A stretch of DNA of 64,000 nucleotides. Origin: an uncultured virus (IMG/VR IMGVR_UViG_3300042484_001250). Taxonomy: Duplodnaviria; Heunggongvirae; Uroviricota; Caudoviricetes. A model generated the notes under the pieces. It saw only the letters and a list, made by a program, of their open reading frames with translations, did no database searches and had not been told where the DNA came from. The stretch is taken from the IMG/VR virus record IMGVR_UViG_3300042484_001250, positions 62,001 through 126,000 of that record; one strand, 5' to 3'. This document shows, in pieces, positions 22,612 to 48,136 of this stretch (its first letter is position 1; each line of letters opens with the position of its first letter). The position numbers were made by a program, and so were the translations under genes.

Positions 22612-24648
22612 ATGGCATTAACTACAATAAATAAGAATTTTAAAAACAAAGGAAAAGATATAAAATATCTAAATAAAGACTTTGCTGCATTTAGAGAAAA
22701 CTTAATTGAATTTTCTAAAACATATTTTCCAAAAACATATTCTGATTTTAATGAAACATCACCTGGTATGATGTTTATTGAATTAGCATCGTATGTTGGT
22801 GATTCATTATCTTATTATGTAGATGATACTTTAAAAGAATCATTAATGCCATACGCTGAAGATATTCAAAGTGTAATTGCATTATCTCAATTTTTGGGAT
22901 ATAAACCAAAAGTAACATCTCCAGCAATAACAAATGTATCGGTATATCAATTAATTCCATCAATTGGAAGTGGTGTTAATAACAAACCAGATGAAACATA
23001 TTTTCTTAGAATAAAAGAAGGTATGCGATTACAATCTACTGAAAATGATATTTTATTTAGAACAACAGACGTAGTTGATTTTAATGATGAAAACAATAGA
23101 GAGATTACAATTTACGAAAGAGATGTAAATACTGGAGAACCTACTTTTTATTTGGTTAAAAAATATGTACAAGCAATATCAGCTATCACATCGGAAAGAA
23201 CATTTACGTTTGGAGCATATCAACCATTTCAATCAATAACATTAGATGAAACGAACATTATTCAAATATATGATGTTAGGGATTCGAATGGAAACAAATA
23301 TTATGAAGTTCCATATTTGGGACAAGAAATGGTGTATATTGAACAACCAACAACAGAATCAAATGATGCTGAATTATATCAATTTAAAACAACAGTTCCA
23401 TATATTCTTAAAACTATAAAAACACCAAGAAGATTTGTAGCAAAAGTAAATCAAAATAGTACAACTACATTACAATTTGGAGCAGGTGACCCATCCGCAT
23501 CGGATGAACAATTAATACCAAATCTTAAAAATGTAGGACTTGGTTTACCAAACTCAATTAGTAGATTGGAAGAATCATTTGACCCAACTAATTTTTTAAA
23601 AACAAAAACGTATGGAACATCTCCATCAAACACAAGTATTATTGTTAAATATTTTGTAGGTGGTGGTATTAGTTCAAATATAGTTAAAGGTGATTTGACT
23701 AGAATAGTTGGAATAGAATATGAAGATGATATTGATTCATTTACAAATGCACAAATAGCAACATATAATAGTATTAAAAATTCAGTAGCAGTTGATAACG
23801 AAATACCCGCAACAGGTGGTAGAGATGGTGAAACTATTGAAGAGATTAGACAAAACGCATTGGCAAACTTTGGTGCACAAAATAGAGCAGTAACTGCAAA
23901 AGATTATCAAGTTAGAGCATTATCATTACCATCAAAATATGGTGGTGTTGCTAAAGCATTTGCAACTGCAGATGGTACATTGGATAATAATTCACCTGCT
24001 TCTATATTAGCATCACCAAATCATTTACAAGAGTTTACGGATTTGGTTATGAGTTTTGTTAATAAGCCTGATTCAGAAGAACCAACTATACAATCCGTTA
24101 AGCAAGATATTACAACATATTTAATTGGTAAAGATTCCAACTTAAAGGAAAAAAATAATCCGTTTGCAATTAACCTCTATTTGTTGGGATATGATTTAAA
24201 CGGAAATCTTACAAATCTTAATAAAGCAGTAAAAGAAAATCTTAAAACTTATATGAACGAATACCGAATGTTGACAGATGGTGTTAATATAAGTGATGGG
24301 TATATTATAAATATTGGTGTTGAGTTTGATATTATCATATATAACAACTACAACAAAAGTGAAGTACTTACTAAATGTATTACTGAATTGAAAGATTATT
24401 TTAATATAGATAATTGGACATTCAATCAAACAATTAATTTAAGCGAAGTAGAATTACTAATAGCAAACGTTGAAGGTGTATCATCAGTACCAATGATGAA
24501 AATAACAAATAAATGTGGTGGAAATTATTCACCAAATTCATATAACGTAGATGCTGCAACTAAAGATAAAATTGTATATCCATCGTTAGACCCATCTATT
24601 TTTGAAATTAAGTTTCCGGATTCAGACATTAAAGGACGAGTAAGATAA
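22612..24648 (+). CDS. gp6: Baseplate wedge subunit, gp6/Baseplate-J-like
   Basis: DFNETSPGMMFIEL, TLQFG and ATGGRDGETIEEIR...AQNRAVTAKDY motifs. Confidence 0.9.
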   Translation: MALTTINKNFKNKGKDIKYLNKDFAAFRENLIEFSKTYFPKTYSDFNETSPGMMFIELASYVGDSLSYYVDDTLKESLMPYAEDIQSVIALSQFLGYKPKVTSPAITNVSVYQLIPSIGSGVNNKPDETYFLRIKEGMRLQSTENDILFRTTDVVDFNDENNREITIYERDVNTGEPTFYLVKKYVQAISAITSERTFTFGAYQPFQSITLDETNIIQIYDVRDSNGNKYYEVPYLGQEMVYIEQPTTESNDAELYQFKTTVPYILKTIKTPRRFVAKVNQNSTTTLQFGAGDPSASDEQLIPNLKNVGLGLPNSISRLEESFDPTNFLKTKTYGTSPSNTSIIVKYFVGGGISSNIVKGDLTRIVGIEYEDDIDSFTNAQIATYNSIKNSVAVDNEIPATGGRDGETIEEIRQNALANFGAQNRAVTAKDYQVRALSLPSKYGGVAKAFATADGTLDNNSPASILASPNHLQEFTDLVMSFVNKPDSEEPTIQSVKQDITTYLIGKDSNLKEKNNPFAINLYLLGYDLNGNLTNLNKAVKENLKTYMNEYRMLTDGVNISDGYIINIGVEFDIIIYNNYNKSEVLTKCITELKDYFNIDNWTFNQTINLSEVELLIANVEGVSSVPMMKITNKCGGNYSPNSYNVDAATKDKIVYPSLDPSIFEIKFPDSDIKGRVR

Positions 24649-25715
24649 TGATATATTTTTTAACAGCATCTAAAGATGCAACATTGTATTTACAGCAACC
24701 CAATCAAAATACTGGGCTTGATGAGATATTGGAAATAAATAAAGTATATTATGGAAATATAAAAGATATAACCCATGCTTTACTTAAATTTGAAATGGGG
24801 TATCTATCATCTTCAATTGTAAGTGGTGATGTATCAATGAGTAATGCAACTCTTATTTTGAGAGAAACCGAAAGTAATGAGATACCATTAGATTACACAA
24901 TATTTGCAAATGCATTATCTGGCAGTTGGGAAATGGGTAAAGGTAATCGATTTGATGAAATTGAAACCGCCGGTGTAACTTGGAATTATAGAGATGGTGA
25001 TAATAGTGTTGAATGGTTAGAAAACACTTTTAACACAAACACAACTGCTAGTGTAAATAATGGAACTGGTGGTACTTGGTGGACTAATTATCAGGCATCT
25101 CAAGGATATAGTTATCAAACTGCTGATATTGAAATGGATGTTAAATCTATTTTAAGAGGATGGGTAAGTGGTTCTATTCCAAACGATGGTTTTATTTTAA
25201 GGAGAGATGTTGACAAAGAAAGAGATACAAATGATTACGGTCAACTTAAATTCTTTTCAAAAGAAACGCATACAATTTATCAACCAAAAATTAGAATAGG
25301 TTGGGATGACCAAAAAATTGTAACTGGTTCACTAACCGAATTAACAACCGAAGATATAAAAGTTAGTATATCTAATTTAAAGAAAGAATATAAATTAAAT
25401 AGTATTCCAAAATTAAGAGTGTTGGGTAGAGAATTATATCCATTAAAAACATTTACAAGCACATTTGCATATAATGATGTTAAGTATTTACCCGAAACTA
25501 CATATTATCAAATAAAAGATTTACATTCAAACGATGTAATAATCCCCTTTTCGGAATATTCAAAAGTAAGTTGTGATTCAATTGGTAACTATATAAATTT
25601 AAATCTTTCCAATTGGGAGGTTGATAGAAAATATAAAATAGAATTTAAAATAGATAGAGATGGTTCTATTTCTTATTTTGATGATAATATAATATTTGGT
25701 GTAATTAAGTACTAA
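24648..25715 (+). CDS. Structural protein with DNRLRE/CBM-like beta-sandwich domain
   Basis: KDATLY...NTG, WEMG...VTWN and NDGFIL...KFFSKE...PKI pattern; baseplate context. Confidence 0.5.
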   Translation: MIYFLTASKDATLYLQQPNQNTGLDEILEINKVYYGNIKDITHALLKFEMGYLSSSIVSGDVSMSNATLILRETESNEIPLDYTIFANALSGSWEMGKGNRFDEIETAGVTWNYRDGDNSVEWLENTFNTNTTASVNNGTGGTWWTNYQASQGYSYQTADIEMDVKSILRGWVSGSIPNDGFILRRDVDKERDTNDYGQLKFFSKETHTIYQPKIRIGWDDQKIVTGSLTELTTEDIKVSISNLKKEYKLNSIPKLRVLGRELYPLKTFTSTFAYNDVKYLPETTYYQIKDLHSNDVIIPFSEYSKVSCDSIGNYINLNLSNWEVDRKYKIEFKIDRDGSISYFDDNIIFGVIKY

Positions 25716-25716
25716 G

Positions 25717-28304: not shown

Positions 28305-28357
28305 GATAATTTAAAATAAAATATTTATAAAATAACAATACAATAATAAAATAATAA

Positions 28358-31300
28358 ATGGCTGCACCAAAACAAATAGGATATGATGATTATGGAAATC
28401 CATTATTGGATGAATCTGGCGCACCTTTATTTATTGGTGAGGGTAGTGGTGGGAATCCAATAGGTTCACCAGCATTCGCACCCACTCCACCACCTGCTAC
28501 TCTTCCCCAGTCCACATCATATACATTTCGTCTTGAAAACATAACTGGTGATGATGTAGTATTTTCTTATCAAGCTCCTAATTCTGTTTATAAAAATGTA
28601 ACTGTTTTTGCATATTCAAACAGAGAAGTTTGTGCTATACCAGACACATTTACATATCCACCTGGTTTAGATGTTACTCAATTAAGTCCCTGTGATAATC
28701 CAACTGGTGGAACTCCATCAACACCGGGTGGAAGTACCGAACCGATTGATGGTATTGGGCGAACTCCTGCACCTGTATCTGCAACTAAATTTAATCTTAG
28801 AATTATAAGTGCAAATGCTGCTGGTAGTACTCAAAAATATGTAATAAATGGAAAAGAATATTCCGAAGCAACTAATTATGAGTTTGATATAAATGATTTT
28901 AAGAATGCAGTTGAAATTATACCAAATTACAACAATAAATTATATAATTTAAAAAACGCGTTTAGAATACATACACAACGTAGTGGAACATTAGCTATTT
29001 TTGAAACTCTAACAAAGTATGGTTCTGATAATTCTGGTTCCGAAATTAATAGATTTTTTGATACATTCCCAACAGATATTACAGTAACATTTGATTATGA
29101 ACCATTTGCATTACCACCCCCAACAAATGATTCTGTTGAATTACAACTTGAATTGGATGGTCAAAGTGAGTCTGCAGTAGTTTTATTAGATAGTGGAGTG
29201 GAATATCTTGTAAAATCTGGATATTCGGTAATAAATGTTAAATTAGGCAGTACTTTTAAATTATATTCCAATGGTAGCGATTATAATGTAACAAGATTAC
29301 TTGGTATAGAATCACAAGGTGATAGAGATGTTACTGCATTTGATTTAAATGCCAATGCAACAACACCCTCACTTGAATTAAGTTATAGAGTAAAACAATC
29401 AGTAAAAGTTTTCATAACAACTAATTCGGTACAAAGGGTTGAAAGTAGACCAAAAATAGTTCCTGGTATTAGTTTTACTGCTGGTGATAGTAGAGAATAT
29501 AATACAAATTCTGAAACTGGTGTTGCATTTACAATCGGAAAATCTGGCGGTGTAAGCAGAATTAGAGTATCTGTAAATAATCAAGAATACACATTTAGTG
29601 ATTTAGGCAGTGATGGTGAAACAATAATTTATTTACCTGATGCAGCATTCCCAACACCTGGTCAATATAGAATTATAATGGTCCCATCCAATGGAAATGG
29701 TGATGGGAATCCAATAGAAGGACTTGTAAGTGCATTTGCAGATTTTTGGGTAGGTGTTCCTGATATTAGAGATATTGTATATCCATCGGTATTAAGAGGA
29801 CCTGATTATACTGGAACTAATGTTGATTTTGATTTAAGTTATAAAACAGTTAATGCTGATTTTGTTAGAATATCAAAAGAGGGTAGTTCACAATATATTC
29901 AAGGACCTGCATCTGGTACTATAAAATTAAATGTACAACAAATTTTAGATTTAGATAATACTCTTACTTCGGAAGATGAAGATAAGATTTCATTTACTTT
30001 AAAATTAGTTGCATATAACATAAGTGGGTTATCACCTGTTATAAGTAGAGAAGAATTTATTACAATTCTATTTGATAAGGGTGATTTAATAATCCCAAGA
30101 CCATTAGCAATGAATAGAATTGCCGATGGTTTCTTTTCACAATTTAATACAAATGTATTTGCAGATGAAACTTCAAAATATTTAACACACTTATTACATT
30201 TAGGCGATGGTGATAACAAAGTAGTTACTACGTGGGTTGGAAGTGATAATAGTTTAATATTAAAATTATACGAACCATTAACAACGGCAGTACAAGCAAA
30301 TCAACAAGTTTGGATTTCAAAATTACAATCAAATCCAATTGTTGAAACTGTAACTTTAAAAAACGAAGTAGATGAATTTTGCCCTCCATTAAAAGGACCT
30401 AATTTCAGTTTAGATACATCCGTTGGTATTGGATATAAAGTGTTTGATGAATTGACTGCAAGTGGTTCATATACTTCAAACGATATTGTAAACAAATATT
30501 TGGAGGGTAATGGAATTGATACATCTAAATTAAATATATCATATGCAAGTGGTTCTGTTTATTTGTTTAATAATTTTGTAAATTTTAGTTCTGCTGAAGA
30601 AAGAGTAAATAACTTTTTTTATAAAGTACAATTAATAGAAACTTATAAAGATAAATATACAAGATTAATAGCAGATACATTTACAAATCCATACATAGAT
30701 TTACAATCAAATTTATTAGCAGAATATGACGCTACAAATGCAGATGTATTTTTAACAACATATAGTTCTCAAAACAATGCAAATTTAATAACTGAAGATA
30801 CTATATTTGATTTAATTCAATGGGAGATTAATCAACCAAAAGGTACTGCTCAAATTTCCGAAGCTAAAAATATATTAGAAAAAGCAAATGTTTTAATTAG
30901 AGGACTTGATGGATTTGAAAAATGGTTATATACGGATTTAATATATTCAGATAGTTTATCATACCCAAAAACTACTTCAACAAACGGTCTTACTGGTTTA
31001 ACTACTTATGTTTTAAAACCAACTACCGATAGTGAAGTTACTGCTTGGTATGAATCTTTAATTAATTTGGCGTATGAATTTGACAAATACAATCCAAATT
31101 ATTTAGTAAACAATATACCTGAATTTATAAAAGAAGATTATGATAATAATGATTTCATACTTTTCTTAGATATGATTGGGCAACATTTTGATATTATTTG
31201 GGTTTATATTAAAGCATTATCTGGAAACAAATTATTAGAAGAAAAACAATTTAAAGGAGCTACAAATAATCTTATATATTACCTATTGGAATCAATGGGT

Positions 31301-33721
31301 TGGGATGGTAAGAGAGCGTTTGATTCACAATTCCTTTGGGAGTATGCGTTTGGAACTGATAGAGAAGGTAATCAAAAATATGGAATGCCATTGGAAGATG
31401 CAAACAATCAAGTTTGGAGAAGAATCCTAAACAACCTACCATATTTATTAAAACATAAAGGTACATCCAGAGCTATGAAAGCAGCTATGGCTTGTTATGG
31501 TGTTCCCCAATCCATGTTAACAATTATGGAATATGGTGGACCGCAAGACCCAACAAAAGATGGTACTACTAAATTTACATTTGATGATAGAACTGCTGCA
31601 ATTAAATTAAACTCTGGTTCATATAATTCTTCTGTTGTTGTTCCTTGGAAATCAATAAATGGTTCATATCCACAAGGTATTGAATTTAGAATAAAACCTG
31701 ATAACGTACATAATACAACTATTATATCATCATCTCAATTTAAATTAGATATAATACAAACAACAGGTTCTTTTGCAACTTTACGATTTGGATTGGGTGG
31801 TAATGCAATATCAGCAGGACCTTATATAGAAACGCCATTTACATCTGCATCCGTATCAACTACTTATTTTACAGCATCTATTGAATATGTGCTGGGGCCT
31901 GATACTGTTAGTGGTAGTTCTAATTTTCCATTATCTACCGAATATTATAGTAATGTTTTAATAAATAGATATCAATTAGGAGGTCAATTTTCATCCGCAT
32001 CACGTTATGAGGTATTACTAAAAACATCCGATGGACAACGAATTGTGAATTCCGTGAGTATGTCTTTTGTTAGTACAAAGGAATATTGGGAAAGTGGTTC
32101 TAATTTAACAATAGGTAAAGATTTTGATGGTAACTTAGATGAGTTTAGATTATGGAGAGTTCCACTGCAACCATCTAAATTAGAAAATCACACATTACAC
32201 CCAGATGCTATAAATGGAAATTCATATACTTCATCAACGGCTGATTTATTATTTAGATTAGATTTCGAATATCCAAAAAATAGAATATTAGACCCATATA
32301 TTAAAAACGTTGCTATAAACACAACATATGGTGAAAATTATGCTACGGCTAGTAATATGTACCCCGCTACACTATATCCGTATCAATACACTCCATATGA
32401 TAGAACTGTAACAGCAACTGTACCATCGTTGGGATTAAATTATTCCAATAAAATTCGTTTTGAAGAACAAACTTTAGTTGGAGATTTATCTCATAAAGTA
32501 AGAGCAACTCAAAAAGCGTTTGATAGAGCACCAATAGATTCAAATAGATTAGGTATATTCTTATCTCCAATTAAGGAGTTAAATATGGATATTGTAAGAG
32601 CATTTGGTGATTTTAATATTGATAACTATATTGGTGACCCATCGGATGATTATAAAGATAATTATACAGAATTAACTAATTTAAGAACTTATTATTTCCA
32701 AAGATTAAATAGAAACATATACGAATACATTCAATTGGTTAGATATATTGATAAATCTTTATTTGATGTATTGGAAGATTTGGCACCAGCTAGAGCAAAG
32801 GTATCTAAAGGTTTATTAATTGAACCGCATTATTTAGAAAGAAGTAAAACTAAATGGAGTAAGCCTGAATCCGAAAGAGGTGATTATGAAACATTAATAA
32901 ACACATTTGAAGATAAGAAAATTGAATTAACTTATGAATCTAAAGATGCTTTAATAGATGCATCTACTCAAGTTAATTTAGAAGGAGATACTCCAAACTA
33001 TGATACTATAATAAATGCAGAAGATGTATATACATTGGAAGCAACTAATCCAAACTACGATACATTAATAAATACTAATGATAATATTATAATTGAAACC
33101 GAATATCCAACATACCCACCTACTGGTTCTGTTAATATTGATTGTAACTTGGGTTCAAAAATATTAGCTGAAGTAGATTCGTTTACAACTACTATTATTG
33201 GATTTGACCCTAACTCAATTGCTAATGCAGGATTTGGATTATATGCAGAAAATGGTAATAGTATTATTAGAAAAATAGAACCGGTATTTGGAAACTTTGA
33301 AACAACTGGTAGTAGAAGTAGTGTATTTTTAGTAAAAGAGCAATACAATACAAAAATATCAACTCAATTAAAAGGTTGGCCTACAATTGGTGCTTTACCT
33401 GGTGAGCAAGTATATTATGAAGATGTAGATGTAACAAATTACAGATATAAAGTTTCAATTTTACCATTTAGTGGAAGTATTAACGTTGGAAACGATACTG
33501 TTGAAGTAGTGGCATTAAATGGATATTTTCCATCACACTATAAATTTGTAAATAATTTATCGGAAGGAATGCAACGTTCTTACTTTAAAGGTTCTTTACA
33601 AACATCGGGTTCAACGCCAGATGGTTTAGCTGCAGTTGAAACATTTACAACTAATCCTAACATACTTAGAGTATCTAAAACAGGTAGAGGAAGTGGTGAA
33701 CCAATACTTGTTGTTGACTAA
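28358..33721 (+). CDS. Large baseplate wedge/tail protein with LamG-like domain (gp7-like)
   Basis: FLDMIGQHFD, NNLPYLLKHKGT (P2 gpI/gp7-like), FDGNLDEFRLW (LamG-like). Confidence 0.65.
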   Translation: MAAPKQIGYDDYGNPLLDESGAPLFIGEGSGGNPIGSPAFAPTPPPATLPQSTSYTFRLENITGDDVVFSYQAPNSVYKNVTVFAYSNREVCAIPDTFTYPPGLDVTQLSPCDNPTGGTPSTPGGSTEPIDGIGRTPAPVSATKFNLRIISANAAGSTQKYVINGKEYSEATNYEFDINDFKNAVEIIPNYNNKLYNLKNAFRIHTQRSGTLAIFETLTKYGSDNSGSEINRFFDTFPTDITVTFDYEPFALPPPTNDSVELQLELDGQSESAVVLLDSGVEYLVKSGYSVINVKLGSTFKLYSNGSDYNVTRLLGIESQGDRDVTAFDLNANATTPSLELSYRVKQSVKVFITTNSVQRVESRPKIVPGISFTAGDSREYNTNSETGVAFTIGKSGGVSRIRVSVNNQEYTFSDLGSDGETIIYLPDAAFPTPGQYRIIMVPSNGNGDGNPIEGLVSAFADFWVGVPDIRDIVYPSVLRGPDYTGTNVDFDLSYKTVNADFVRISKEGSSQYIQGPASGTIKLNVQQILDLDNTLTSEDEDKISFTLKLVAYNISGLSPVISREEFITILFDKGDLIIPRPLAMNRIADGFFSQFNTNVFADETSKYLTHLLHLGDGDNKVVTTWVGSDNSLILKLYEPLTTAVQANQQVWISKLQSNPIVETVTLKNEVDEFCPPLKGPNFSLDTSVGIGYKVFDELTASGSYTSNDIVNKYLEGNGIDTSKLNISYASGSVYLFNNFVNFSSAEERVNNFFYKVQLIETYKDKYTRLIADTFTNPYIDLQSNLLAEYDATNADVFLTTYSSQNNANLITEDTIFDLIQWEINQPKGTAQISEAKNILEKANVLIRGLDGFEKWLYTDLIYSDSLSYPKTTSTNGLTGLTTYVLKPTTDSEVTAWYESLINLAYEFDKYNPNYLVNNIPEFIKEDYDNNDFILFLDMIGQHFDIIWVYIKALSGNKLLEEKQFKGATNNLIYYLLESMGWDGKRAFDSQFLWEYAFGTDREGNQKYGMPLEDANNQVWRRILNNLPYLLKHKGTSRAMKAAMACYGVPQSMLTIMEYGGPQDPTKDGTTKFTFDDRTAAIKLNSGSYNSSVVVPWKSINGSYPQGIEFRIKPDNVHNTTIISSSQFKLDIIQTTGSFATLRFGLGGNAISAGPYIETPFTSASVSTTYFTASIEYVLGPDTVSGSSNFPLSTEYYSNVLINRYQLGGQFSSASRYEVLLKTSDGQRIVNSVSMSFVSTKEYWESGSNLTIGKDFDGNLDEFRLWRVPLQPSKLENHTLHPDAINGNSYTSSTADLLFRLDFEYPKNRILDPYIKNVAINTTYGENYATASNMYPATLYPYQYTPYDRTVTATVPSLGLNYSNKIRFEEQTLVGDLSHKVRATQKAFDRAPIDSNRLGIFLSPIKELNMDIVRAFGDFNIDNYIGDPSDDYKDNYTELTNLRTYYFQRLNRNIYEYIQLVRYIDKSLFDVLEDLAPARAKVSKGLLIEPHYLERSKTKWSKPESERGDYETLINTFEDKKIELTYESKDALIDASTQVNLEGDTPNYDTIINAEDVYTLEATNPNYDTLINTNDNIIIETEYPTYPPTGSVNIDCNLGSKILAEVDSFTTTIIGFDPNSIANAGFGLYAENGNSIIRKIEPVFGNFETTGSRSSVFLVKEQYNTKISTQLKGWPTIGALPGEQVYYEDVDVTNYRYKVSILPFSGSINVGNDTVEVVALNGYFPSHYKFVNNLSEGMQRSYFKGSLQTSGSTPDGLAAVETFTTNPNILRVSKTGRGSGEPILVVD

Positions 33722-33774
33722 TTGGAAAATAAAAATAAGTTATATTTATATAATATAGAATAAACGAATAAAAA

Positions 33775-34404
33775 ATGGCATATTTAGATAATACAGAAAT
33801 AACAGTAGATGCAATACTTACCAAAAAAGGTAGACAAAAATTAGCATCTGGACAATCTCTAAACATCACAAAATTCGCATTAGGTGATGATGAGATTGAT
33901 TATACATTGTATGAGCCGGCACACCCAAAAGGTTCGGCATATTATGATTCTGCTATCAGAGCAATTCCGGTAACGGAAGCAACTCCTGATGAGACTCAAA
34001 TATTAAGATACAAATTAGTAACTCTTCCAAAAGGAACAACTCAAATACCAATAGTTAAATTGGGTGTAACAGCAATTTCAGTAAATCAAACTGAAGGTGG
34101 TGTATCGTTATCACCAACAACATCTCCTGCTGGAAATACAAACGCTGGATACACTGTGGTGTTGGCTGACCAAAGAGCTGGTACATTGACAGTAACCAAT
34201 GGAACAACTGGAACTGGTACGGTACCTGTTTTCTTAGGTGAAGAAATTACAACAACTGCACAAGTAGTTAGTGGTTTAGAATTTAGATTTACTCCAAATC
34301 CTAACTTAACTATTGATGTTGCAACTACATTGACAGTATATGGTAATGATACGGGTGGTTCTGAAACAATTCCAGTAACTGTGATATACAAACAAAGAAT
34401 ATAA
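33775..34404 (+). CDS. Baseplate/tail-fibre attachment protein
   Basis: ILTKKGRQKLA...ITKFALGDDEIDY, a tail-collar-fibre-like N-motif. Confidence 0.55.
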   Translation: MAYLDNTEITVDAILTKKGRQKLASGQSLNITKFALGDDEIDYTLYEPAHPKGSAYYDSAIRAIPVTEATPDETQILRYKLVTLPKGTTQIPIVKLGVTAISVNQTEGGVSLSPTTSPAGNTNAGYTVVLADQRAGTLTVTNGTTGTGTVPVFLGEEITTTAQVVSGLEFRFTPNPNLTIDVATTLTVYGNDTGGSETIPVTVIYKQRI

Positions 34405-34416
34405 TAAAATAAGACA

Positions 34417-35667
34417 ATGGCAATAATTAATGATATTAATATAACCTCACAAATTGCAGCATTGGCAAATGGTGGAAATTTGGATACCAACGCTTTGGTA
34501 TCTTTATTAAACTCGGCATTACCAGCTGGACAACAATTATCTTCAGGTGGTACTACCAACGCAATTGGTATCTACAAAAGATTTGGTGAGTTTGATAAAG
34601 TAAACGCAAAAGTAGAAGTTGTAACAACTGGATTATGGTCTAACGATTCTGGTTCATTAACTACATTTTTTACATCATCAACGCAAGTTGCACAAAATAG
34701 TGGACAATACTACTATAATGTATATGATAAAAATACAGCAACCGATTCAACTACTGAAGTTCAATTTGCAGTAGCATACGGACACGTAGATGGTAGTGGT
34801 TCAATGACATTGAATTTAAACGATAATTCATTACAAGCATCCAAAGCAACTTATGCACAATATCGTTCAATTTTATTAGACCCAACAGATACTAAATTCT
34901 CATTTGAAAATAGTTCTACAACTTTAGTTGATTCGAATGATATATATGTTATCAATTTAAGTAGAAATAGATTTAGAGAGAAAATGGATGCTGGAAACTG
35001 GTCATTACCACTTTCTGGTTCTAATGGTTTATTTACTTTTATTGATAATAGTGGTAAGAAATTTAGTGATGAGAGTGGATTAAGTGGACGAGTATTTAAA
35101 GTTGTTGAAGGTAACTTAAATTTAGGTACACAAAGTGAAGCAACTATTACAAGTACAACCGATGCAACATCTGGTGAAGGATATGGTTTATTTTATCCTG
35201 ATAGAGGTATTATTGTTCTTAATCCAAGAGCAATTGGTAATAAGGTAGGAAACGTTTGGAACGAAGCATTTCAAACTGTAGGTCATTTAGCACCTGGTGG
35301 TGCTGGAGCAACATCTGCACCTGATAATTCAACATCAACTGCGGCTGAACAATATTATCATAAGAGATTGTACTACGCAATTAAAAATGGTAAAGATTTT
35401 GAAGCAAGAAGAACTGAAAATGTATCAACACAACATTTCTTTGTAAGAGCAACAAATAGAGAGTTTAACTACTCCAACAATCCAACATATGTAAATGTAG
35501 ATGGTACATTTAGTGAAACAACTTTTAAAACTGACCCATATACTTACATTACAACGATTGGTTTAATGAATGATTCAAATGAATTGATTGCGGTGGCTAA
35601 AACATCTCAACCAATTGCAAAATCATTTGATAAGGAAGTTTTAATTAAAGTTAAATTATCATTCTAA
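34417..35667 (+). CDS. Baseplate/tail structural protein
   Basis: C-terminal EFNYSNNP and YITTIGLMNDSNELIAVAK; paralog of next gene. Confidence 0.6.
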   Translation: MAIINDINITSQIAALANGGNLDTNALVSLLNSALPAGQQLSSGGTTNAIGIYKRFGEFDKVNAKVEVVTTGLWSNDSGSLTTFFTSSTQVAQNSGQYYYNVYDKNTATDSTTEVQFAVAYGHVDGSGSMTLNLNDNSLQASKATYAQYRSILLDPTDTKFSFENSSTTLVDSNDIYVINLSRNRFREKMDAGNWSLPLSGSNGLFTFIDNSGKKFSDESGLSGRVFKVVEGNLNLGTQSEATITSTTDATSGEGYGLFYPDRGIIVLNPRAIGNKVGNVWNEAFQTVGHLAPGGAGATSAPDNSTSTAAEQYYHKRLYYAIKNGKDFEARRTENVSTQHFFVRATNREFNYSNNPTYVNVDGTFSETTFKTDPYTYITTIGLMNDSNELIAVAKTSQPIAKSFDKEVLIKVKLSF

Positions 35668-35754: not shown

Positions 35755-36726
35755 ATGCTTAAACCAATACCAAAATCAGATATCATTGTTAGACCTATAA
35801 CAGTTTACAAAGAATGGTCTTTGGATGAAAATGATGTATTTCCAATATTTGCTTTAAGTGGAAGTAGTGGTAATTTCGATGATGAGTTTGATGAAACAAG
35901 TAATGGATTTTCTAAAAAAAGTTTATACGCATCAATAAAATCACAATTTTACAGAAATTCTTCAACTGCATCAATTTTAACAGAAGTTGGTTTACGAAAA
36001 TCATATGCATCTACCGATGAAAGAAATTTAGAAGATGAGGTGGTGGTATTTTCAATTCCACAAATATACATTGGTGAGGGTATTAAAATTGGTAGTGTTG
36101 TTTTATTAGATGATGATACTAATAGAACTTTAACGGATGATGGTTATTCAAACCTTATAGATTCTGGTAGTAATATTAAAGGTAATATATTTTATGATAG
36201 GGGATTAATAGTTGTGGCTAAAGATATTACATCCGGCTCAAACTTTAATACTTTTAGATTAAATTATCGTTCTACTAAAACAATTTATGAAAACGAAATA
36301 TTCATATCGGTTTTAGAGCATGAATTTAATTATTCTCAAAATCCATCTGCTGTATATGAAGATGGGGCAACTTATGATATGATAACCGTTACTAATAGAA
36401 ATGATGTAACTGGAGCTAACACATATTCAAAACCAATTTATAAAAGTGGTGTAAAATATGTAAAGAAAAAAACCAATTTACCAAATGGTGATGGTTCTTT
36501 GGATTTTAGGATACAATCAAATATAGACCCAACAAAATATGGTAGTTGGGATGATTATGATGAATATATTTCAACAGACCCTACCGGTTCATATTTAGCA
36601 CCATATATTACAACAATTGGATTATATGATGATGATTTAAATATGGTTGCTGTTGCAAAATTACCACAACCAATAAAATCATTGCCTGATTTTCCAGTAA
36701 ACTTTATTATAAGATTTGATACTTAA
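35755..36726 (+). CDS. Baseplate/tail structural protein (paralog of 34417..35667)
   Basis: GNIFYDRG, EFNYSQNP and YITTIGLYDDDLNMVAVAK motifs. Confidence 0.6.
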   Translation: MLKPIPKSDIIVRPITVYKEWSLDENDVFPIFALSGSSGNFDDEFDETSNGFSKKSLYASIKSQFYRNSSTASILTEVGLRKSYASTDERNLEDEVVVFSIPQIYIGEGIKIGSVVLLDDDTNRTLTDDGYSNLIDSGSNIKGNIFYDRGLIVVAKDITSGSNFNTFRLNYRSTKTIYENEIFISVLEHEFNYSQNPSAVYEDGATYDMITVTNRNDVTGANTYSKPIYKSGVKYVKKKTNLPNGDGSLDFRIQSNIDPTKYGSWDDYDEYISTDPTGSYLAPYITTIGLYDDDLNMVAVAKLPQPIKSLPDFPVNFIIRFDT

Positions 36727-36766
36727 AAAGTTATTGTGTTATATTTATAATTAAACAATTAAAACA

Positions 36767-36955
36767 ATGGCATCTATATTAGAATTATTTGGTGAAAACG
36801 GTCCAAAAACTTCACAAATTAATAAAAAAGGTAAAGATAAAACTCCAATATCAGAAGATGGTGGAATGAATTTAGCAAACGAAGCAAATTTAGCAAAAGC
36901 TAGACAAGGAAAATTAAATTCAAAATTCTACTCTGATTCGGTAGTAAAGAAATAA
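36767..36955 (+). CDS. Small hypothetical protein
   Basis: 62-aa ORF 17 nt after TATTTATA. Confidence 0.6.
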   Translation: MASILELFGENGPKTSQINKKGKDKTPISEDGGMNLANEANLAKARQGKLNSKFYSDSVVKK

Positions 36956-36956
36956 A

Positions 36957-37364: not shown

Positions 37365-37375
37365 ACACAAAAGTT

Positions 37376-37576
37376 ATGACAATACCTGAAATATCAAAAA
37401 AATACGGAATCTCCGAAGCATATTTAAATGCAAAAGATGATGCAGTACAAATTGCGGCAGCATCTATATTAGATTTAAAAGCTATGGTTGAGCAAAATCA
37501 TCCAAAAGAAGTTATCACAAAGAAAATGCAGTTTTTAGCAGATTTCTTATATGATGTAAAAAATTCCAATCATTAA
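37376..37576 (+). CDS. Small hypothetical protein
   Basis: 66-aa ORF in operon position; HTH-like start MTIPEISKKYGISEAYL. Confidence 0.6.
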   Translation: MTIPEISKKYGISEAYLNAKDDAVQIAAASILDLKAMVEQNHPKEVITKKMQFLADFLYDVKNSNH

Positions 37577-37608
37577 TTTGGAATTGTAAAATAATCTTCG
37601 TATATTTG
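37577..37608 (+). promoter_or_regulatory. Bacteroidota housekeeping-sigma promoter upstream of primase
   Basis: TTTG (37577)-20 nt-TATATTTG (37601), matching the -33/-7 TTTG...TAnnTTTG consensus. Confidence 0.8.
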
Positions 37609-37627
37609 TAAGATTATAATCCAAATT

Positions 37628-41706: not shown

Positions 41707-41863
41707 CAGAAGGTAATATATTTTTTGGTTGAGGTTTTGGTAATACTTTTTCTTTTATCAAAGCTTCAACTAAACCATTTAATTTATAACCTTTATCTTT
41801 ACAAAATTCTTTTAACATAAGATGTACTTCTGCATCAATTTGTATCATTGCATATTTTTTCAT
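41696..41863 (-). CDS. Ribbon-helix-helix DNA-binding protein, 55 aa (not in ORF track)
   Basis: MKKYAMIQIDAEVHLMLKEFCKDKGYKLNGLVEALIKEKVLPKPQPKNILPSVKN*; beta-alpha-G-alpha RHH pattern. Confidence 0.75.
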   Translation of the reverse strand: MKKYAMIQIDAEVHLMLKEFCKDKGYKLNGLVEALIKEKVLPKPQPKNILPSVKN

Positions 41864-41965
41864 AACGATTATTTAACTTTCTTTAATTTTATTTATATTT
41901 CTTTAGATAAGTATTAACATAAATATTTATCGTAATATTTATATTGAGAACTAATAGAAATTTCA

Positions 41966-44900
41966 ATGGCAAGAATTAAAAAATACGCTAGTAACCAAAC
42001 AACAAATTTACAGCCACAATTAACTGAATATGGTACTTTTGTCACAGACCAGTTACCATCATCAATATATTTTAGAATATCTGAATTTAAAGATACATTT
42101 ACAGGTGGTAAAAACGGATTTCTTATTGAAGGTTCTGAACATTTATTAGAATCTACTGAAATAAAAATAGAAATAATAGATGTAAATGGTAATCCAATTT
42201 ATTATGAACCAGGTGATGGTATACCTGAATATTATGAAGGACTATCTAAATTAGTAGCTGTTTACATTTATGAGGATACTCCAATTGGTATTGCCAACAT
42301 AACTATATTAGGAGAATTAAAAACTTATATAGATAGTGAAGGAAATGTACAACCAATACCAGAAGAATGGAAAGGTATTTATAATGTAAAATGGCAAAAA
42401 GAATTTAAAGTAAATCGTTTAATAGCAAACGAAGATAGAGTTAGATTTTATAAAAGACCTCAAGTATCAATTACAGAATTAATAAAACCATTATATTCAA
42501 ATGTAGTTGCTCAAAAAACAAATAATGGTACTGTTAGTGGTATTCCATTAGCACCATTAGAAAATCAACCATTATCCGAATATAGTTTACCAACATCCTA
42601 TTTATTAACTATAACCGATAATGGTGTATATAATGCTTGGAGTAGTTCGGTTGTTGGAAATACTATAAGTGTACCATCATTGGGATATACAACAACTGCA
42701 GATGATATAATAAATAAAACTCAATTAGTTGTAACAAATCCATACACAGATTCCAATGGATTGGTTCAGCCATTTGTAAGTGCACCATATACTACAACTT
42801 TTAATTATTTAGAAGGTGTTAATGATTTAGCAACTGCATTAACTGGTTCATTTGCAAAAATAAGTCTTACTGATTTAACATCATTTGTAGGAGATGTTGC
42901 TAGAGTTAAAGTATTTAGAAAATCGCAATCAGACTTATCCGACTTTCAATTTATTCAAGAAATTCAATTGGAAGCAAATGAATTACTTTTGGATTTGGAT
43001 ATACCAACTAAAAATCAAGAAAACTACGGAATATTTACATCGGATATTATTAAAGATTATTGGGTAACATCTTCTAATAATTTAACAGCAACATTTAATC
43101 AAAGTTATTTATATAATTCGGTTAAATTAAATAGTAATTCTTCGGTTTACAAATTCCATACATCAAAATCAATATCAATTACCGAAGATGTTGAATATAC
43201 TTTGGATTTTAAAGTTAGAAGTGAAACATCAACTGGTAATGGTTATATTAAAGCATTTTTAAGTGGTTCTAGAGATGGTACAAACGGTAAAGTACAAGTA
43301 GAACAACAAATAATAGCTGTACCAGCACAAACGGCAGTTTTACAAAAATCAACTGTAACTAAAAATATAATTGCCCAACAAATGGCAACTGCTAGTTTGT
43401 ATTTTGAAGTTAGTGGAAACGATTGGTATGTGTCTGATGTTAGTTTAAAAGCATCTCAAGAAAGTTCATTTTCACCCGATGAAATAACATTTATACAATC
43501 AGTTCCAAGAACATTACCGGAGGAAACATTTATATATCGTTTTGAATTCTATGATATTAATAACAACTATATACCTGTAAATGTAGAAGAAACAAAAACA
43601 TTTAACGGAGGTAATTTACAAACAATTAGAAAAGGTTTACAATTACTACCATCATCTTTATATTTTCAATTTGATTCTGGTTCAAATCCAGTTCCCCCAA
43701 CTTCTATAAACATTCAAGTTGTAAAAACTTTATTAACTGGTTCTGTACGATACACATCTCAATCATTTGATTATGATGGAAGTACTCATACGGCTTTACA
43801 ATATGCAGGTGGGCAGTATCCTGGTGTTTTAAATCAAACAAATCCTGATAATGTAGTATTAACTGTTGGAAATTTTACTGGTAGTAGAAGTGATAAAAAT
43901 GTACAATATTTAGAAATAACCGGTGAAGTGGAAGGATTTACTGATACTATTATTATAACAAAAGTATTAGATGGATTTGGTGGTGTAAACTATATTATTA
44001 GACCTTATAGAGGAACTCAAATCAGAAATAGTAGTACTGCTTCTTTGGAAATTCAAGCGGTTAGAATTGATGGTATAAATGAGATTATTTTAAATGATAC
44101 AATTGGAAAACCAAAAGGCTGGCCTACTTATCAACTTCACGTATTGTCAGCATCGTTAGACCCATTGAACGAACCTGAAAGGTTTATCAATTTACAAAAA
44201 GCAGTCAATCAAAATTATATTAAAGGATTATCTGTTGGGGAATTGGGTAGTAAACAAATAAACTACAATGCAATATTCAATAGAGATTCTATAAATAAAG
44301 TAAGAGTAGTTTATATATTATCGTCTGGTTCAATAACACAACAACCTGCTTTTATAGCATCCGCATCTGTATTGACATCTATAAATTTAGAGGATTTGCA
44401 AGATGGTTTGGATTCTGGATTTATGGTATATAATACGGATACGTTTACTATCAATCCAAGAACTCAAACAATATTTACACCTGTATCGGCAAGTGTTACG
44501 GGTTCATTTTATAAAAGAGGAACTAACGTAGAACCATTTACCGCATCATTTGAGGTGTTCCCATCAATGTCTTTAAACATAGATTTTGAGCCGGAATATT
44601 GGATGTATTATGTAACTGGTAAATTTCATCCAAATATTTCAGTAGTAGCAATTGATGAAAAGAAAAGAGAAATACCATCAAGAGCAGTTTCTAATCATAT
44701 ATACTCACCATTATCACAAAGTAAAACATTAACCGTAACATTAACTTATACCGAAGATTATACATCATCATCTATAAGTTTGGATAAGACATTTACAATT
44801 GTACCTGAAGGAAAGCCGGGTGATGAGAGTATTGTATTTGAAGTAGTACCTACCAATGTAACCTTAAACTCAAATGCAGAAGGTACTGTTTTAGATTACA

Positions 44901-47900
44901 AACCATCTATAACTGATATTAAATTAAAACAAGGTAGTAGATATTTGATATTTACTGGAAGTAGAGCAGCTGGTACATTCCACATTGCATCATCCTCAAT
45001 AAGTTCACAAAATATCACACCTGGTAATGTACACTTTACATCATCATTTGGGATACCATATACTGCATCATTAATTGTATCTCAATCTTCAAATCTTACT
45101 GATTTAAGTGGTAGTATAACATATCCATTGATTATACATCCGTACTATACATCATCAATCTACACACAAAGTATTGTTCAAAACTATACCAAAGCAGTTG
45201 ATGGACCTCCACCAATTGATGTAATAATAACTCCAACTAATATTACATTAAATGCCGATGAGAATGGTTTTGTATCAACTTTAGCTCCCGCACAAACTAC
45301 AATTCAATTAAGAGAAGGTAGTAAATTTTTAACATTTAATAGTAATTCAGCAGAAACACCTGGTACTTTTAAATTTGGTAGTACACCTACTCAAAATATT
45401 ACAATAAGTACTTTGCAGGGAAATGGTACTAATTCGGCAACTGCATCATTTAGTTTATTTAATTATCCACATGTATCGGCAAGTGTAAATTATAATATAA
45501 TTGCATTTCCATATTCATTGGGACCTGGTCATAGATTTACATCATCAGTATTTAATAGAACTCAAACTATAACGAAGAATGTGGCTGCAACTGCTGCTAG
45601 AACTATTAATTTAACATCAACTGCATATACTATAACTTATGATTCGGATGGGCAAGTAGTTAATCCAACAGATGGTATTACATTAGTTGCAACTGCATTT
45701 AATACAACTGGTTCTAGATTTTATCAATTTTTTAAAGATGATGTAGCTCAAACACCAATACAAACTACGGCAACTAGAAATGTAGCTCCTGAAGATGCAG
45801 TTGCTGTTGGTGAAGTTGCAACTTGGAAAGTAACATTAAGAGATGGTAGTAATTCAGCATCGGCACCAATTAGAGCACAAGCCTCTGTAACAATTGCTGG
45901 TGTTGGGGATGGTACTAAAGCATATAACGCAGTTGTAAATCCCGAAAACACTTCTATTGTTTATAAAGTTTCTGGTGAGTTGGAAATAGCTAATACATCT
46001 GCAGTAATAACGGCAACAAAAGGTGGAGAAGCTCTAACACATAGACCATCTGGTTTTAGTGCACAATCACAAGACCCATTTGGAAATAATATAGGTTCAT
46101 TAGGTGAGTATCAGGTAACTATTCATTCTAAATCAAATCATATAGTTTTGGGTGATAGTAAAGTTAGTGGTAGTGTATTGAATGGTAGTACTAACGCAAC
46201 TATTAGTAATTTAGCAGGATGGGTAAATCCGATTGGAAATCCAACGGGACAGATTGTTTATAGAATTAATTTTGAAAACGGAAAACAAATAACTTTTAAA
46301 ACACAATCAATTGCAATTCAATACGAAGGAGACACTGGACCTGGTATTGTAATGAGAGGTGTGTGGAATCAAACTACTAATTACATAGGTTCGGTTGAAA
46401 CAACAAACTATCGTAGAGATGCGGTAATTTGGCCTGACCCTGGTAACTCTGGTGGTAACACTAGATATTATGCGGCAATTAGTGGTAGTGGACCAGGTAC
46501 CGCAACTGGATATCATGAACCTGTTTACTCACCATCACCTGTTGATAGTGCATGGTGGCAATACTTAGGTGACCAAGAATTCTTTGTGGCAGCTAAGATT
46601 GCAATATTCGATGAATCATTTGTTAAAAATACAATTAATATTGGTAACAATGCTGGTAGTCCTTTTGCAAACATTGTATTAGCTGGGGGTAGAGATGACC
46701 CTTATATGGCAATTGGACAAAACGGAACTGTTGGTGGAAACGGAATTCAATATGACCCATCTACACACCCTACTATAATTGGATATGATAAGATTGGTAT
46801 ATTTGCTGGTATGTACAATGGTGCAACATACGAACCACGTTTTTCATTAAGAGGAAGTGGTGGTAATTATTTAAGATGGAATGGCAGTACTTTGGATATT
46901 AGTGGTGCGATAACGGTAACTGGAGGTGATGCGGCAACACAAACATATGCATCTCAATCGGCAGCAACTGCGTTATCATCGGCATTGACAACTGTAAACG
47001 CATTGGCCGCCGGTACTTACAATATTGGTACAACTACATTCATTACAAACAATTTTATATCTGCACCGGTAATTGCTGGAACTGCTGGATATATACAAAA
47101 ATTATTTAGGGTTGGCGATGATACAGCTGCATCAATTTATTTAGATGCTAGAAATATAGCCGATGGAGCAGCTGATAATTATCGTAGAATATGGATTGGT
47201 AGTGGTGCATATGGTATTTATGGTGATTCAAATACTTCATTTTATGTAGATAGTAATAATAGATTTTCGTTAGGTGATAAATTAACATTTACTGGTGGTA
47301 ATTTAAGTGTAAGTGGTAATATAACTTCAACCGGTGGAAGTATTGGTGGATGGACTATAGATTCCAATTCAATTTTTAGTGGAACAAAGGGTACTAATGG
47401 TGCTTATACCGCAGCGGCAGGTAGTGTAACAATATCATCAGAGGGATGGATTTCATCAAAAAATTTCAGAATATCATCAACAGGCGCTGTAAATGCAGAT
47501 GTTATTGATGTGAGTGATGTGTTAGCTTCATCGGCCTATTTTGGTACTGCTCGAGGAAATTATACAATTGCAATTGATACCAATGCTATGACATTAGCAG
47601 GATATTCACGATTCGATTTGGGAGCAGTTGCTGGTATTGTGGGTACATATACATCATTCATTGCATTTACTGATGGTGGTGGTACTCCATCGGGTACCAT
47701 ATTAAGTTCATTTGGTGCAACTGGATTAACTGTAAATGGTGCAATTACCGCAACTGGAAATATTACTGCTTATTACTCTGATGAAAGATTAAAAACAAAA
47801 TTGGGTAATATTACTAACGCAATTGATAAGATATCACAATTAAACGGATTTTACTATACAAATAATGAGTTAGCAAATTCATTTGGATATACCGATGATA

Positions 47901-48136
47901 AAACTCAATTGGGTTTATCTGCGCAAGAAGTACAAAATGTATTTCCTAATATTGTATCACTAGCACCATTTGATATGAAGGTATATTTACCAAATGAAAC
48001 TAAAACCGATACACCACCCGAATCTAAATCTGGAGAAAACTATTTAACAATTGATTACTCCAAATTAGTACCTGTATTAGTTGAGGCAATAAAAGAATTG
48101 AAAGCGGAAATTGAAGAATTAAAAAGAAATAAATAA
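41966..48136 (+). CDS. Large tail fibre with C-terminal Peptidase_S74 intramolecular chaperone
   Basis: GNITAYYSDERLK...GLSAQEV...IDYSKLVPVLVEAIKEL; Ig-like repeats; GGSIGGWTI. Confidence 0.88.
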   Translation: MARIKKYASNQTTNLQPQLTEYGTFVTDQLPSSIYFRISEFKDTFTGGKNGFLIEGSEHLLESTEIKIEIIDVNGNPIYYEPGDGIPEYYEGLSKLVAVYIYEDTPIGIANITILGELKTYIDSEGNVQPIPEEWKGIYNVKWQKEFKVNRLIANEDRVRFYKRPQVSITELIKPLYSNVVAQKTNNGTVSGIPLAPLENQPLSEYSLPTSYLLTITDNGVYNAWSSSVVGNTISVPSLGYTTTADDIINKTQLVVTNPYTDSNGLVQPFVSAPYTTTFNYLEGVNDLATALTGSFAKISLTDLTSFVGDVARVKVFRKSQSDLSDFQFIQEIQLEANELLLDLDIPTKNQENYGIFTSDIIKDYWVTSSNNLTATFNQSYLYNSVKLNSNSSVYKFHTSKSISITEDVEYTLDFKVRSETSTGNGYIKAFLSGSRDGTNGKVQVEQQIIAVPAQTAVLQKSTVTKNIIAQQMATASLYFEVSGNDWYVSDVSLKASQESSFSPDEITFIQSVPRTLPEETFIYRFEFYDINNNYIPVNVEETKTFNGGNLQTIRKGLQLLPSSLYFQFDSGSNPVPPTSINIQVVKTLLTGSVRYTSQSFDYDGSTHTALQYAGGQYPGVLNQTNPDNVVLTVGNFTGSRSDKNVQYLEITGEVEGFTDTIIITKVLDGFGGVNYIIRPYRGTQIRNSSTASLEIQAVRIDGINEIILNDTIGKPKGWPTYQLHVLSASLDPLNEPERFINLQKAVNQNYIKGLSVGELGSKQINYNAIFNRDSINKVRVVYILSSGSITQQPAFIASASVLTSINLEDLQDGLDSGFMVYNTDTFTINPRTQTIFTPVSASVTGSFYKRGTNVEPFTASFEVFPSMSLNIDFEPEYWMYYVTGKFHPNISVVAIDEKKREIPSRAVSNHIYSPLSQSKTLTVTLTYTEDYTSSSISLDKTFTIVPEGKPGDESIVFEVVPTNVTLNSNAEGTVLDYKPSITDIKLKQGSRYLIFTGSRAAGTFHIASSSISSQNITPGNVHFTSSFGIPYTASLIVSQSSNLTDLSGSITYPLIIHPYYTSSIYTQSIVQNYTKAVDGPPPIDVIITPTNITLNADENGFVSTLAPAQTTIQLREGSKFLTFNSNSAETPGTFKFGSTPTQNITISTLQGNGTNSATASFSLFNYPHVSASVNYNIIAFPYSLGPGHRFTSSVFNRTQTITKNVAATAARTINLTSTAYTITYDSDGQVVNPTDGITLVATAFNTTGSRFYQFFKDDVAQTPIQTTATRNVAPEDAVAVGEVATWKVTLRDGSNSASAPIRAQASVTIAGVGDGTKAYNAVVNPENTSIVYKVSGELEIANTSAVITATKGGEALTHRPSGFSAQSQDPFGNNIGSLGEYQVTIHSKSNHIVLGDSKVSGSVLNGSTNATISNLAGWVNPIGNPTGQIVYRINFENGKQITFKTQSIAIQYEGDTGPGIVMRGVWNQTTNYIGSVETTNYRRDAVIWPDPGNSGGNTRYYAAISGSGPGTATGYHEPVYSPSPVDSAWWQYLGDQEFFVAAKIAIFDESFVKNTINIGNNAGSPFANIVLAGGRDDPYMAIGQNGTVGGNGIQYDPSTHPTIIGYDKIGIFAGMYNGATYEPRFSLRGSGGNYLRWNGSTLDISGAITVTGGDAATQTYASQSAATALSSALTTVNALAAGTYNIGTTTFITNNFISAPVIAGTAGYIQKLFRVGDDTAASIYLDARNIADGAADNYRRIWIGSGAYGIYGDSNTSFYVDSNNRFSLGDKLTFTGGNLSVSGNITSTGGSIGGWTIDSNSIFSGTKGTNGAYTAAAGSVTISSEGWISSKNFRISSTGAVNADVIDVSDVLASSAYFGTARGNYTIAIDTNAMTLAGYSRFDLGAVAGIVGTYTSFIAFTDGGGTPSGTILSSFGATGLTVNGAITATGNITAYYSDERLKTKLGNITNAIDKISQLNGFYYTNNELANSFGYTDDKTQLGLSAQEVQNVFPNIVSLAPFDMKVYLPNETKTDTPPESKSGENYLTIDYSKLVPVLVEAIKELKAEIEELKRNK

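Follow-up and report, generated by a model that had tools for sequence, protein, structure and literature searches.

The window analysed here is a stretch of 64,000 nucleotides, positions 62001-126000 of a 133,285-base record of an uncultured virus (IMG/VR IMGVR_UViG_3300042484_001250), and our subject is a three-residue motif, [S/T]-[G/A]-S, that recurs in its outer baseplate and tail fibre proteins. The window contains gp25-like and gp6-like wedge genes, a run of unnamed baseplate-region genes, genes for a primase, an Mre11-Rad50 fusion, a tail fibre of 2056 amino acids (aa), terminase and a T4-type portal, and three candidate sugar-transferase genes. The record is partial: the capsid, sheath, tube, polymerase and helicase genes of relatives are unmatched by its genes. 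Among annotated records, the closest to it are Flavobacterium phage immuto (Immutovirus immuto, NC_055915), Microcystis phage Mel-JY01 (PP395634) and the uncultured LR756508, with Rhodothermus phage RM378 (NC_004735) more distant; immuto is 57% identical to the window in terminase, 49% in portal and 38% in the wedge. Judged by gene order and identity, the window, the moraphages, immuto, Mel-JY01 and RM378 appear to belong to the same broad lineage, whose wedge patterns match an estimated ~9,500 IMG/VR stretches; the records compared here were picked through targeted searches rather than by random sampling. A TonB-dependent receptor gene in the window would fit a Bacteroidota host, and among the cultured relatives immuto infects Flavobacterium and RM378 Rhodothermus; Mel-JY01 is recorded from Microcystis.

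The genes that carry the motif, and those that serve as controls, are listed below; here and throughout, figures of the form x/y are observed over expected counts, with the expectation taken from each protein's own composition.

22185..24648, plus strand: gp25-like and gp6-like inner wedge proteins (PHROG/Pfam), internal controls without excess; dereplicated families 7/8.4 and 17/32.6.
24648..25715, plus strand: peripheral baseplate-region protein of 355 aa, a beta-sandwich with a domain resembling carbohydrate-binding modules; 5 motifs, at 24663, 24918, 25044, 25167 and 25323; dereplicated family 235/44.0.
28358..33721, plus strand: large baseplate-region protein of 1787 aa; 16 motifs (29033 and 30455-33605); dereplicated family 575/122.4.
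33775..34404, plus strand: Thr-rich conserved baseplate-region protein of 209 aa, a motif-free control (0/0.4); family 3/10.0.
34417..35667, plus strand: baseplate-region protein of 416 aa; 3 motifs (34648, 34795, 35014); family 141/29.2.
35755..36726, plus strand: baseplate-region protein of 323 aa; 5 motifs (35857, 35965, 36163, 36232, 36583); family 76/13.2.
41966..48136, plus strand: tail fibre of 2056 aa with a C-terminal Peptidase_S74 chaperone; 22 motifs, all within residues 1-1510 (42842-46481); family 192/33.9.

The TGS-, SGS- and TAS-type peptides on which the initial annotation had based its proposal of a glycosylation sequon are all present in the sequence. Across the 11 open reading frames (ORFs) of the baseplate/tail block at 22185-48882 (7,076 aa, replication genes excluded), 53 copies of [ST][GA]S are found where 15.2 are expected, and SGS (23 vs 4.2) is the sole tripeptide of 8000 to pass Bonferroni correction (1e-6); elsewhere on the plus strand of the genome, ORFs totalling 31,765 aa hold 22 vs 34.0 expected. 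By protein, named here by start position, the counts are 22/6.4 (41966), 16/3.2 (28358), 5/0.5 (24648), 5/0.6 (35755) and 3/1.4 (34417), compared with 0/0.2 for primase, 2/0.8 for the Mre11-Rad50 fusion, 0/0.7 for terminase and 0/0.3 for portal. The enrichment withstands correction for composition: the counts of 24648, 28358, 35755 and 41966 were not reached in any of 2000 shuffles, while 34417 by itself is not significant (p 0.16). When residues were shuffled only within 30-residue windows, the maximum was 11 for 28358 (observed 16) and 16 for 41966 (observed 22), so that whole-protein and local shuffles together rule out composition or local low complexity as the cause. The motif had been described as recurring throughout the structural proteins, which holds for the outer baseplate and fibre proteins only; there is no excess in the wedge protein 22612 (1/0.9), gp25 (0/0.1), 26796 (0/0.3), 33775 or 48136 (0/1.0), nor in the last 546 residues of the 41966 fibre (0/2.2).

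Beyond the window, outward-facing virion proteins show the [ST][GA]S excess throughout the lineage, at about four- to five-fold. The five motif-bearing families, counted over 80 close loci, gave 46/5.9, 740/165, 347/83, 357/41 and 711/123 (rows that are not independent), and the controls gave 2/29 for 33775 and 17/30.5 for Mre11-Rad50. A further 80 loci were picked by wedge alignment, their wedge being 37-45% identical to that of LR756508; 16 held none of four baseplate families, 63 of the other 64 lay above expectation, and the one that did not was a fragment of 114 residues. Three of these loci (L113, L180 and L182) showed no enrichment in their 28358-like protein. Dereplicated, the five families remain enriched 4.7-5.7-fold and the wedge stands at 0.52-fold. 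One homolog search with 34417, which brought up close matches only, was left out of the counts.

A position scan over 111,822 dereplicated residues shows which residues the excess involves. Position 1 favours S (5.35x) and T (4.61x), every other residue being at most 1.11x; position 2 favours G (6.06x) and A (3.56x), followed by Q (2.32x), S (1.91x) and M, with the turn residues D and N at 0.56x and 0.60x; position 3 favours S (5.02x) over T (1.02x). A middle Ser, originally counted as an equal class, was dropped, being weak in the families and not enriched in the window (SSS plus TSS, 13 vs 10.3). Pro immediately after the motif is rare (0.14x), and the motif's Ser codons are divided between TCN and AGY, which rules out a DNA-level repeat as the cause. 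Sites also shift between relatives: they occupy 74 columns in 36 sequences of the 24648 family and 155 columns in 22 sequences of the 28358 family, only two columns in each being filled in at least half of the rows, and one site of 34417 is retained in 18 of 20 aligned relatives. Because of these residue preferences, the avoidance of Pro, the mixed Ser codons and the shifting positions, [ST][GA]S behaves like a site that is read by an enzyme.

In an AlphaFold (AF2) model of the 24648 protein (predicted local distance difference test score, pLDDT, of 89), the two best-conserved sites, Ser176 and Ser228, lie in loops; the site at residue 6, which is not conserved, is part of a strand. The best PDB fold matches of the model are carbohydrate-binding modules (8WAB, E 1e-6; 7VBO), and this baseplate-region protein may itself be a sugar binder. 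Motif density can become extreme in fibre-like proteins of relatives, with 198 motifs in 2,759 aa at G001:C1:200001-208278 (L101) and 147 in 2,236 aa at G026:C1:13291-20000, both of them made of repeats such as IASGSVTASVSP.

An explanation that needs no enzyme would treat the tripeptide as a structural habit, inherited in this lineage, of outer proteins rich in beta structure (turns, strand caps, Ser/Gly-rich linkers) and let the glycosyltransferase (GT) cassette that relatives carry, described below, act on DNA or host surface molecules instead. Such a habit would account for a roughly twofold level of [ST][GA][ST] in the baseplate block of the cassette-free record G028 and for those sites that form conserved columns; the cassette, moreover, adjoins polymerase and clamp-loader genes, and phage GTs that modify DNA are described in sections of PMC12619734. 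We nevertheless regard it as unlikely, given that the excess survives both kinds of shuffle, that Ala substitutes for Gly whereas Asn and Asp are depleted, and that Thr is accepted first but not third. Furthermore, fibres that are non-homologous between genomes each bear the motif, and T4 and LR756508 build the same types of parts without it.

The excess also follows the geometry of the particle. Matched outer orthologs give 34/10.0 in immuto, 45/8.7 in Mel-JY01, 37/7.4 in G001 and 35/10.0 in G010, as opposed to 2/5.2 and 2/5.8 for inner protein sets. Among relatives with complete or long records, the excess is found in sheath, capsid, fibres and peripheral baseplate proteins but is missing from the wedge, tube, tape measure, portal, terminase and protease; the tube proteins of immuto, Mel-JY01 and G001 contain zero motifs. 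A virion-wide sequon, as first envisaged, is therefore too broad a description, since wedge, tube, tape measure and portal do not share the excess. In four sheaths, 26 of 28 sites align, if loosely, to residues 88-345 of T4 gp18, a region that holds 1585 of the 3001 residues and that sections of PMC3004832 describe as the solvent-exposed part of the sheath protein. Six capsid proteins hold 21 sites, 20 of which align, again loosely, to gp23 132-240, where the region's composition predicts 5.8 and where the I-domain end at 240 is an estimate; residues 132-160 are the I-domain linker, and the I domain forms capsid surface protrusions (PMC9546572, in part). Sixteen T4 outer proteins show no excess (12/18.9).

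Three genes downstream of the fibre gene are candidates for a sugar transferase.

48889..49848, plus strand: protein of unknown function, phrog_4417, with a DxD motif and an HPAT/GT95-like lead.
50236..52416, plus strand: fusion of a GT4 and a methyltransferase, adjoining the TibC-like gene and distinct from the core GT4 pair of relatives.
52404..53561, plus strand: Aah/TibC-family GT that does not track the motif.

The initial annotation had assigned the motif to an enzyme of the last kind, which would heptosylate its serines. The gene is a true family member (293.2 bits against a cut-off of 200 for TIGR04414; 4RAP match E 4e-56) and lies 4 kb from the fibre gene. It retains the catalytic Asp (Asp111, equivalent to TibC Asp110) and the iron-finger Cys339, 342, 356 and 368; among the sugar-binding residues, the positions of Thr226, Lys230 and Trp305 are kept in the alignment but that of Arg286 is Val, and Arg286 is required for TibC activity according to parts of PMC4358343. 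No autotransporter domain was found among 48 window proteins, and no HldE-like gene was matched in the 133-kb partial record. HldE-like genes do adjoin TibC in G001, although their halves score below cut-off, and among 80 TibC loci the nucleotidyltransferase half occurs in 25 and the kinase half in 6.

The expected co-occurrence of motif and heptosyltransferase gene, however, fails in both directions. TibC is found in the motif-rich G000, G001, Mel-JY01 and G023, but there is no match in complete immuto (structural region: SGS 35/9.4, TGS 30/8.0) or complete RM378 (84/37.9), nor in the partial, enriched G008, G009, G010 and G026; in G008, G009 and G010 it is missing across an intact fibre-to-terminase interval. 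G006 and G007 (97-100% complete) are without the 24648 gene, and their TibC absence was left uncounted. Conversely, TibC is carried without an excess by G028 (complete; 1.12), G033 (0.90) and LR756501 (1.33 with a specificity of 1.01), ratios calculated with collagen-like runs masked and, for LR756501, with 476 of 735 kb covered; none of the three prefers Ser over Thr at position 3. Because the excess occurs without TibC and TibC without the excess, this double dissociation rejects the gene as the lineage-wide cause of the motif, and it is very unlikely that the enzyme at 52404-53561 heptosylates the motif serines.

A different substrate may be indicated by the company that TibC keeps. The TibC-bearing G001, Mel-JY01, LR756501, G028 and G033 have long collagen-like Gly-X-Y fibres, Thr/Ser-rich in those inspected; such fibres are missing from immuto, RM378, LR756508 and G008-G010. 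These fibres are proline-free and of the type Gly-Thr/Ser-Ser, with a Gly-X-Y run of up to 3,516 residues in one G028 protein. Among 16 records selected by the repeat (one TibC-selected record excluded; 13 under 90% complete), 10 carry TibC and 2 carry GT4B, a gene of the cassette introduced below. Running counter to the pairing, LR756504 has TibC but not the pattern, G026 and G037 have the repeat but not TibC, and around close TibC homologs the repeat lies within 10 kb in only 2 of 80 loci. The partial record contains no such fibre; the pattern occurs in its close relative G002. A tendency of TibC to accompany collagen-like Gly-Thr/Ser-Ser fibres is thus offered as a lead for the role of 52404-53561.

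The HPAT-like gene at 48889-49848 may possibly encode a third protein O-glycosyltransferase; PF23452 is found on 10% of the members of some of its look-alike clusters. Its phrog_4417 homologs occur in 77 phage records, mostly of Firmicutes and several of them beside a major tail gene, with no immuto or Mel-JY01 match among the 77. It was rejected as the cause of the motif, being absent from immuto and Mel-JY01 and present in the Chryseobacterium phage MA9V-3, which has no excess (13/12.4); the structural block of MA9V-3 is rich in TTT instead (47 vs 6.5). The GT4 of the fusion at 50236-52416 did not match GT4A or GT4B profiles, those of the core pair, at E 0.01.

The enzyme could also belong to the host, the phage proteins having adapted to it. 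Cultured relatives infect Flavobacterium and Rhodothermus, and Bacteroidota have a general O-glycosylation system with the sequon D-[ST]-[AILVMT]. That sequon is not enriched in the five motif proteins (14 vs 20.1), however, and neither is N-X-S/T (72 vs 67.5), and the Bacteroidota system is periplasmic; together with the lack of excess in MA9V-3 and the Microcystis origin recorded for Mel-JY01, this leaves a host GT as a highly improbable reader of the motif.

What does accompany the motif is a cassette common to immuto, Mel-JY01 and G001, composed of adjacent GT4A (immuto gp181) and GT4B (gp180) genes and a short GT2a gene (gp178), after which come variable GT, epimerase, aminotransferase and acetyltransferase genes. 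GT4A occurs together with GT4B in 80 of 80 loci and GT2a is found in 37 of them, many loci being short. In a tblastn search of 50,697 phage records, GT4B matched only immuto and Mel-JY01; RM378 has a distant GT4B in the same place (E 3e-11; hhalign 94%), and three cultured phages have both motif and cassette. GT4B is modelled with a GT-B fold, for which chlorovirus B736L scores best (3OY2; E 1e-16, 14% identity). The nearest record to carry the cassette is G001 (82% identical to the window in terminase, 78% in primase), where it lies in the replication region, the part missing from the window's record; from this closeness we infer that the window's phage would carry it as well. Within the sugar-pathway cluster of G001 there is also a gene resembling the RuBisCO large chain (G001:C1:128335-129525, equivalent to L097:8335-9525; Pfam E 6e-33), whose neighbours encode a nucleotidyltransferase, a cupin and a UDP-GlcNAc 2-epimerase.

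Among nine records with GT4A, GT4B and GT2a, seven have a whole-proteome ratio of 2.0-3.3 and a Ser-over-Thr specificity of 1.45-3.2 (G023, 3.30; G001, 3.15; G026, 2.92; RM378, 2.22; Mel-JY01, 2.20; immuto, 2.06; G008, 2.01), whereas all five records without GT4B (LR756508, G028, G033, G037 and LR756501) have ratios of 0.90-1.33 and specificities of 0.68-1.13. LR756508 is the most informative of these: it has the same baseplate, sheath and capsid genes and keeps GT4A, but GT4B and GT2a are missing over all 484 kb, and its outer orthologs have largely lost the motif (9/5.2, p 0.08), with remnant sites. GT4A alone was rejected as a marker for the same reason, and a suspected break in the GT4B of G023 (one flagged TAA) was dismissed, the ORF being intact and the genome strongly enriched. 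A search for further motif-poor relatives of LR756508 found only 3 near-identical short contigs. Close GT4B genes that appeared bacterial proved in 26 of 33 GTDB loci to sit on binned contigs of phage-like character; the remaining 7, matches of 25-27%, have ordinary bacterial surroundings, with no GT4A and no clear motif excess nearby. On L626, a 28.7-kb GTDB contig with a gene order unlike that of the main lineage, a divergent GT4A/GT4B pair (35%) immediately follows two ORFs of structural type that are rich in the motif (22/7.1 and 8/2.6). Tet_JBP had no match in 5 cassette carriers, nor in any control genome, and is hence uninformative.

A further case is G040:C1:149050-207006, a G028-type phage in which the cassette lies on the opposite strand beside motif-rich fibre genes like those of G001 and immuto, an arrangement that suggests joint transfer of cassette and fibres. 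Native baseplate genes of G040:C1, compared with those of G028, show no de novo gain of the motif in this unrelated lineage.

Several observations weigh against linking the motif to the cassette. Most carriers are of one lineage, and co-occurrence rests on a single in-lineage loss, that of LR756508, which itself retains a small genome-wide excess (207/155.3; ratio 1.33, specificity 1.13, p 4e-5) and remnant sites at a conserved column. Two of the nine carriers are not clearly enriched: G041:C17 (38/32.5; 1.17; sheath 2/1.3) is a 93-kb piece without baseplate or fibres, and G040:C1 (1.62) is specific only in the fibre block beside its cassette (89/49.7), its own baseplate (44/23.9) being non-specific with [ST][GA]T equally raised (57/29.2). 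The GT4B of RM378 is distant, its sheath and capsid hold one site each, and the cassette is absent from the window's 133-kb record. The [ST][GA][ST] background of G028's baseplate block stands at 17/9.0, and many single-sequence sites are expected by chance at about one per 350-residue protein, so that part of them is noise. Finally, a DNA substrate is possible because the cassette sits among replication genes.

The sequence signature, besides, shows selection for a recognised site and not which chemistry takes place there. The site could be read by another modifying or lineage-core enzyme (phosphorylation, phosphoglycerol or phosphocholine transfer, proteolysis), with the GT cassette merely co-inherited, and LR756508 may have lost other genes along with GT4B and GT2a. 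Against this, all three cassette genes persist across the span from RM378 to G001, and G040:C1, though otherwise of a different lineage, has its cassette next to fibre genes rich in the motif; we consider such an alternative improbable.

On balance, the original idea of a sequon for the phage's own GTs stands as the best reading, although neither through the Aah/TibC-like gene nor across the whole virion: [S/T]-[G/A]-S is probably the sequon of a phage-encoded O-glycosylation system whose core would be the conserved GT4-GT4-GT2 cassette. Under such a mechanism, the GT-B enzymes would act in the cytoplasm during infection, recognising the tripeptide where a loop exposes it and placing a first sugar on one of its two hydroxyl residues, the first or the third; the GT2 and the variable sugar-pathway genes behind the cassette would then extend the glycan into a coat. 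Selection for a denser coat would add sites wherever a loop faces outward, and sites would decay once the second GT4 and the GT2 are lost. The purpose of the coat could be shielding, hydration or adhesion. With S or T allowed at position 1 but only Ser at position 3, the motif may recall N-X-S/T, in which the first residue is the acceptor.

A more far-reaching version, to which we give somewhat less than an even chance, is that the lineage has its own sequon-directed O-glycosylation with a hypervariable sugar locus that would create strain 'serotypes', plus a separable TibC branch that would glycosylate collagen-like fibres. The lineage concerned would be an ancient and abundant one of aquatic myophages, to which RM378 and immuto belong as well as lake phages of 270 kb, and each fibre would offer dozens to hundreds of sites.

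If the sequon is real, soluble phage enzymes would be reading a signal of three residues, a sequon new to O-glycosylation, and the glycosylated surfaces of a very common group of aquatic phages would become predictable from sequence alone. It would also give a job to the lineage's core GTs, bear on host recognition and on particle decay in water, and provide a compact tag for glyco-engineering. As cultured phages carry both motif and cassette, the proposal is directly testable.

Two further features of the region are worth recording. A cluster of host-like secreted or outer-membrane proteins, including two TonB-receptor-like genes, a C-type lectin domain and a lipase, is found at 129-13118 of the window and at 40421-43681 and 60504-62129 of the genome; in 8 hand-picked host-like proteins D-[ST]-[AILVMT] is depleted (3 vs 14.5, a post hoc count). 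Moreover, three consecutive genes at 18775-21623 of the window, followed by the gp25 gene, share a type of N-terminal region and differ in their cell-wall enzyme domains (peptidase M15, CHAP and GH19).

A literature search that largely covered papers available without subscription returned no report of the [ST][GA]S motif. To our knowledge, phage virion glycosylation has so far been reported for a few mycobacteriophages, at terminal sites. In these, phage GT gene clusters are proposed to glycosylate virion proteins as a shield, and the glycans are reported to sit on capsid and tail-tube subunits, at their C-termini (PMC12619734 and PMC10877033, in part). Any likeness would lie in the cluster of GT genes, here the core cassette of G001 and other relatives, which the 133-kb record lacks although the window has other GT genes; the difference, as far as a motif can be compared with a glycan, is that the tube proteins of immuto, Mel-JY01 and G001 have none and that a short linear motif supplies many internal sites in baseplate, fibres, sheath and capsid. 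For the moraphages, sections of PMC12619734 describe four core putative GT groups and cite virion glycosylation as one possible role, and those sections report no motif, substrate or sequon. With Aah/TibC (BAHT), there is a shared concern with cytoplasmic O-glycosylation of Ser, and the window's family member has the catalytic Asp and iron-finger; TibC, however, works along a repeating beta-helix, whereas the motif sites are spread across folds that are unrelated and show no co-occurrence with the gene. Chlorovirus capsids are glycosylated by virus-encoded GTs (PMC9614988, in part). Although that system is N-linked and belongs to a eukaryotic virus, and although many unrelated GT4 enzymes match GT4B almost as well as the chlorovirus GT-B protein B736L (3OY2) does, B736L is the top fold match of GT4B, and the two systems would have in common a virus-made particle glycan placed at non-host sequons.

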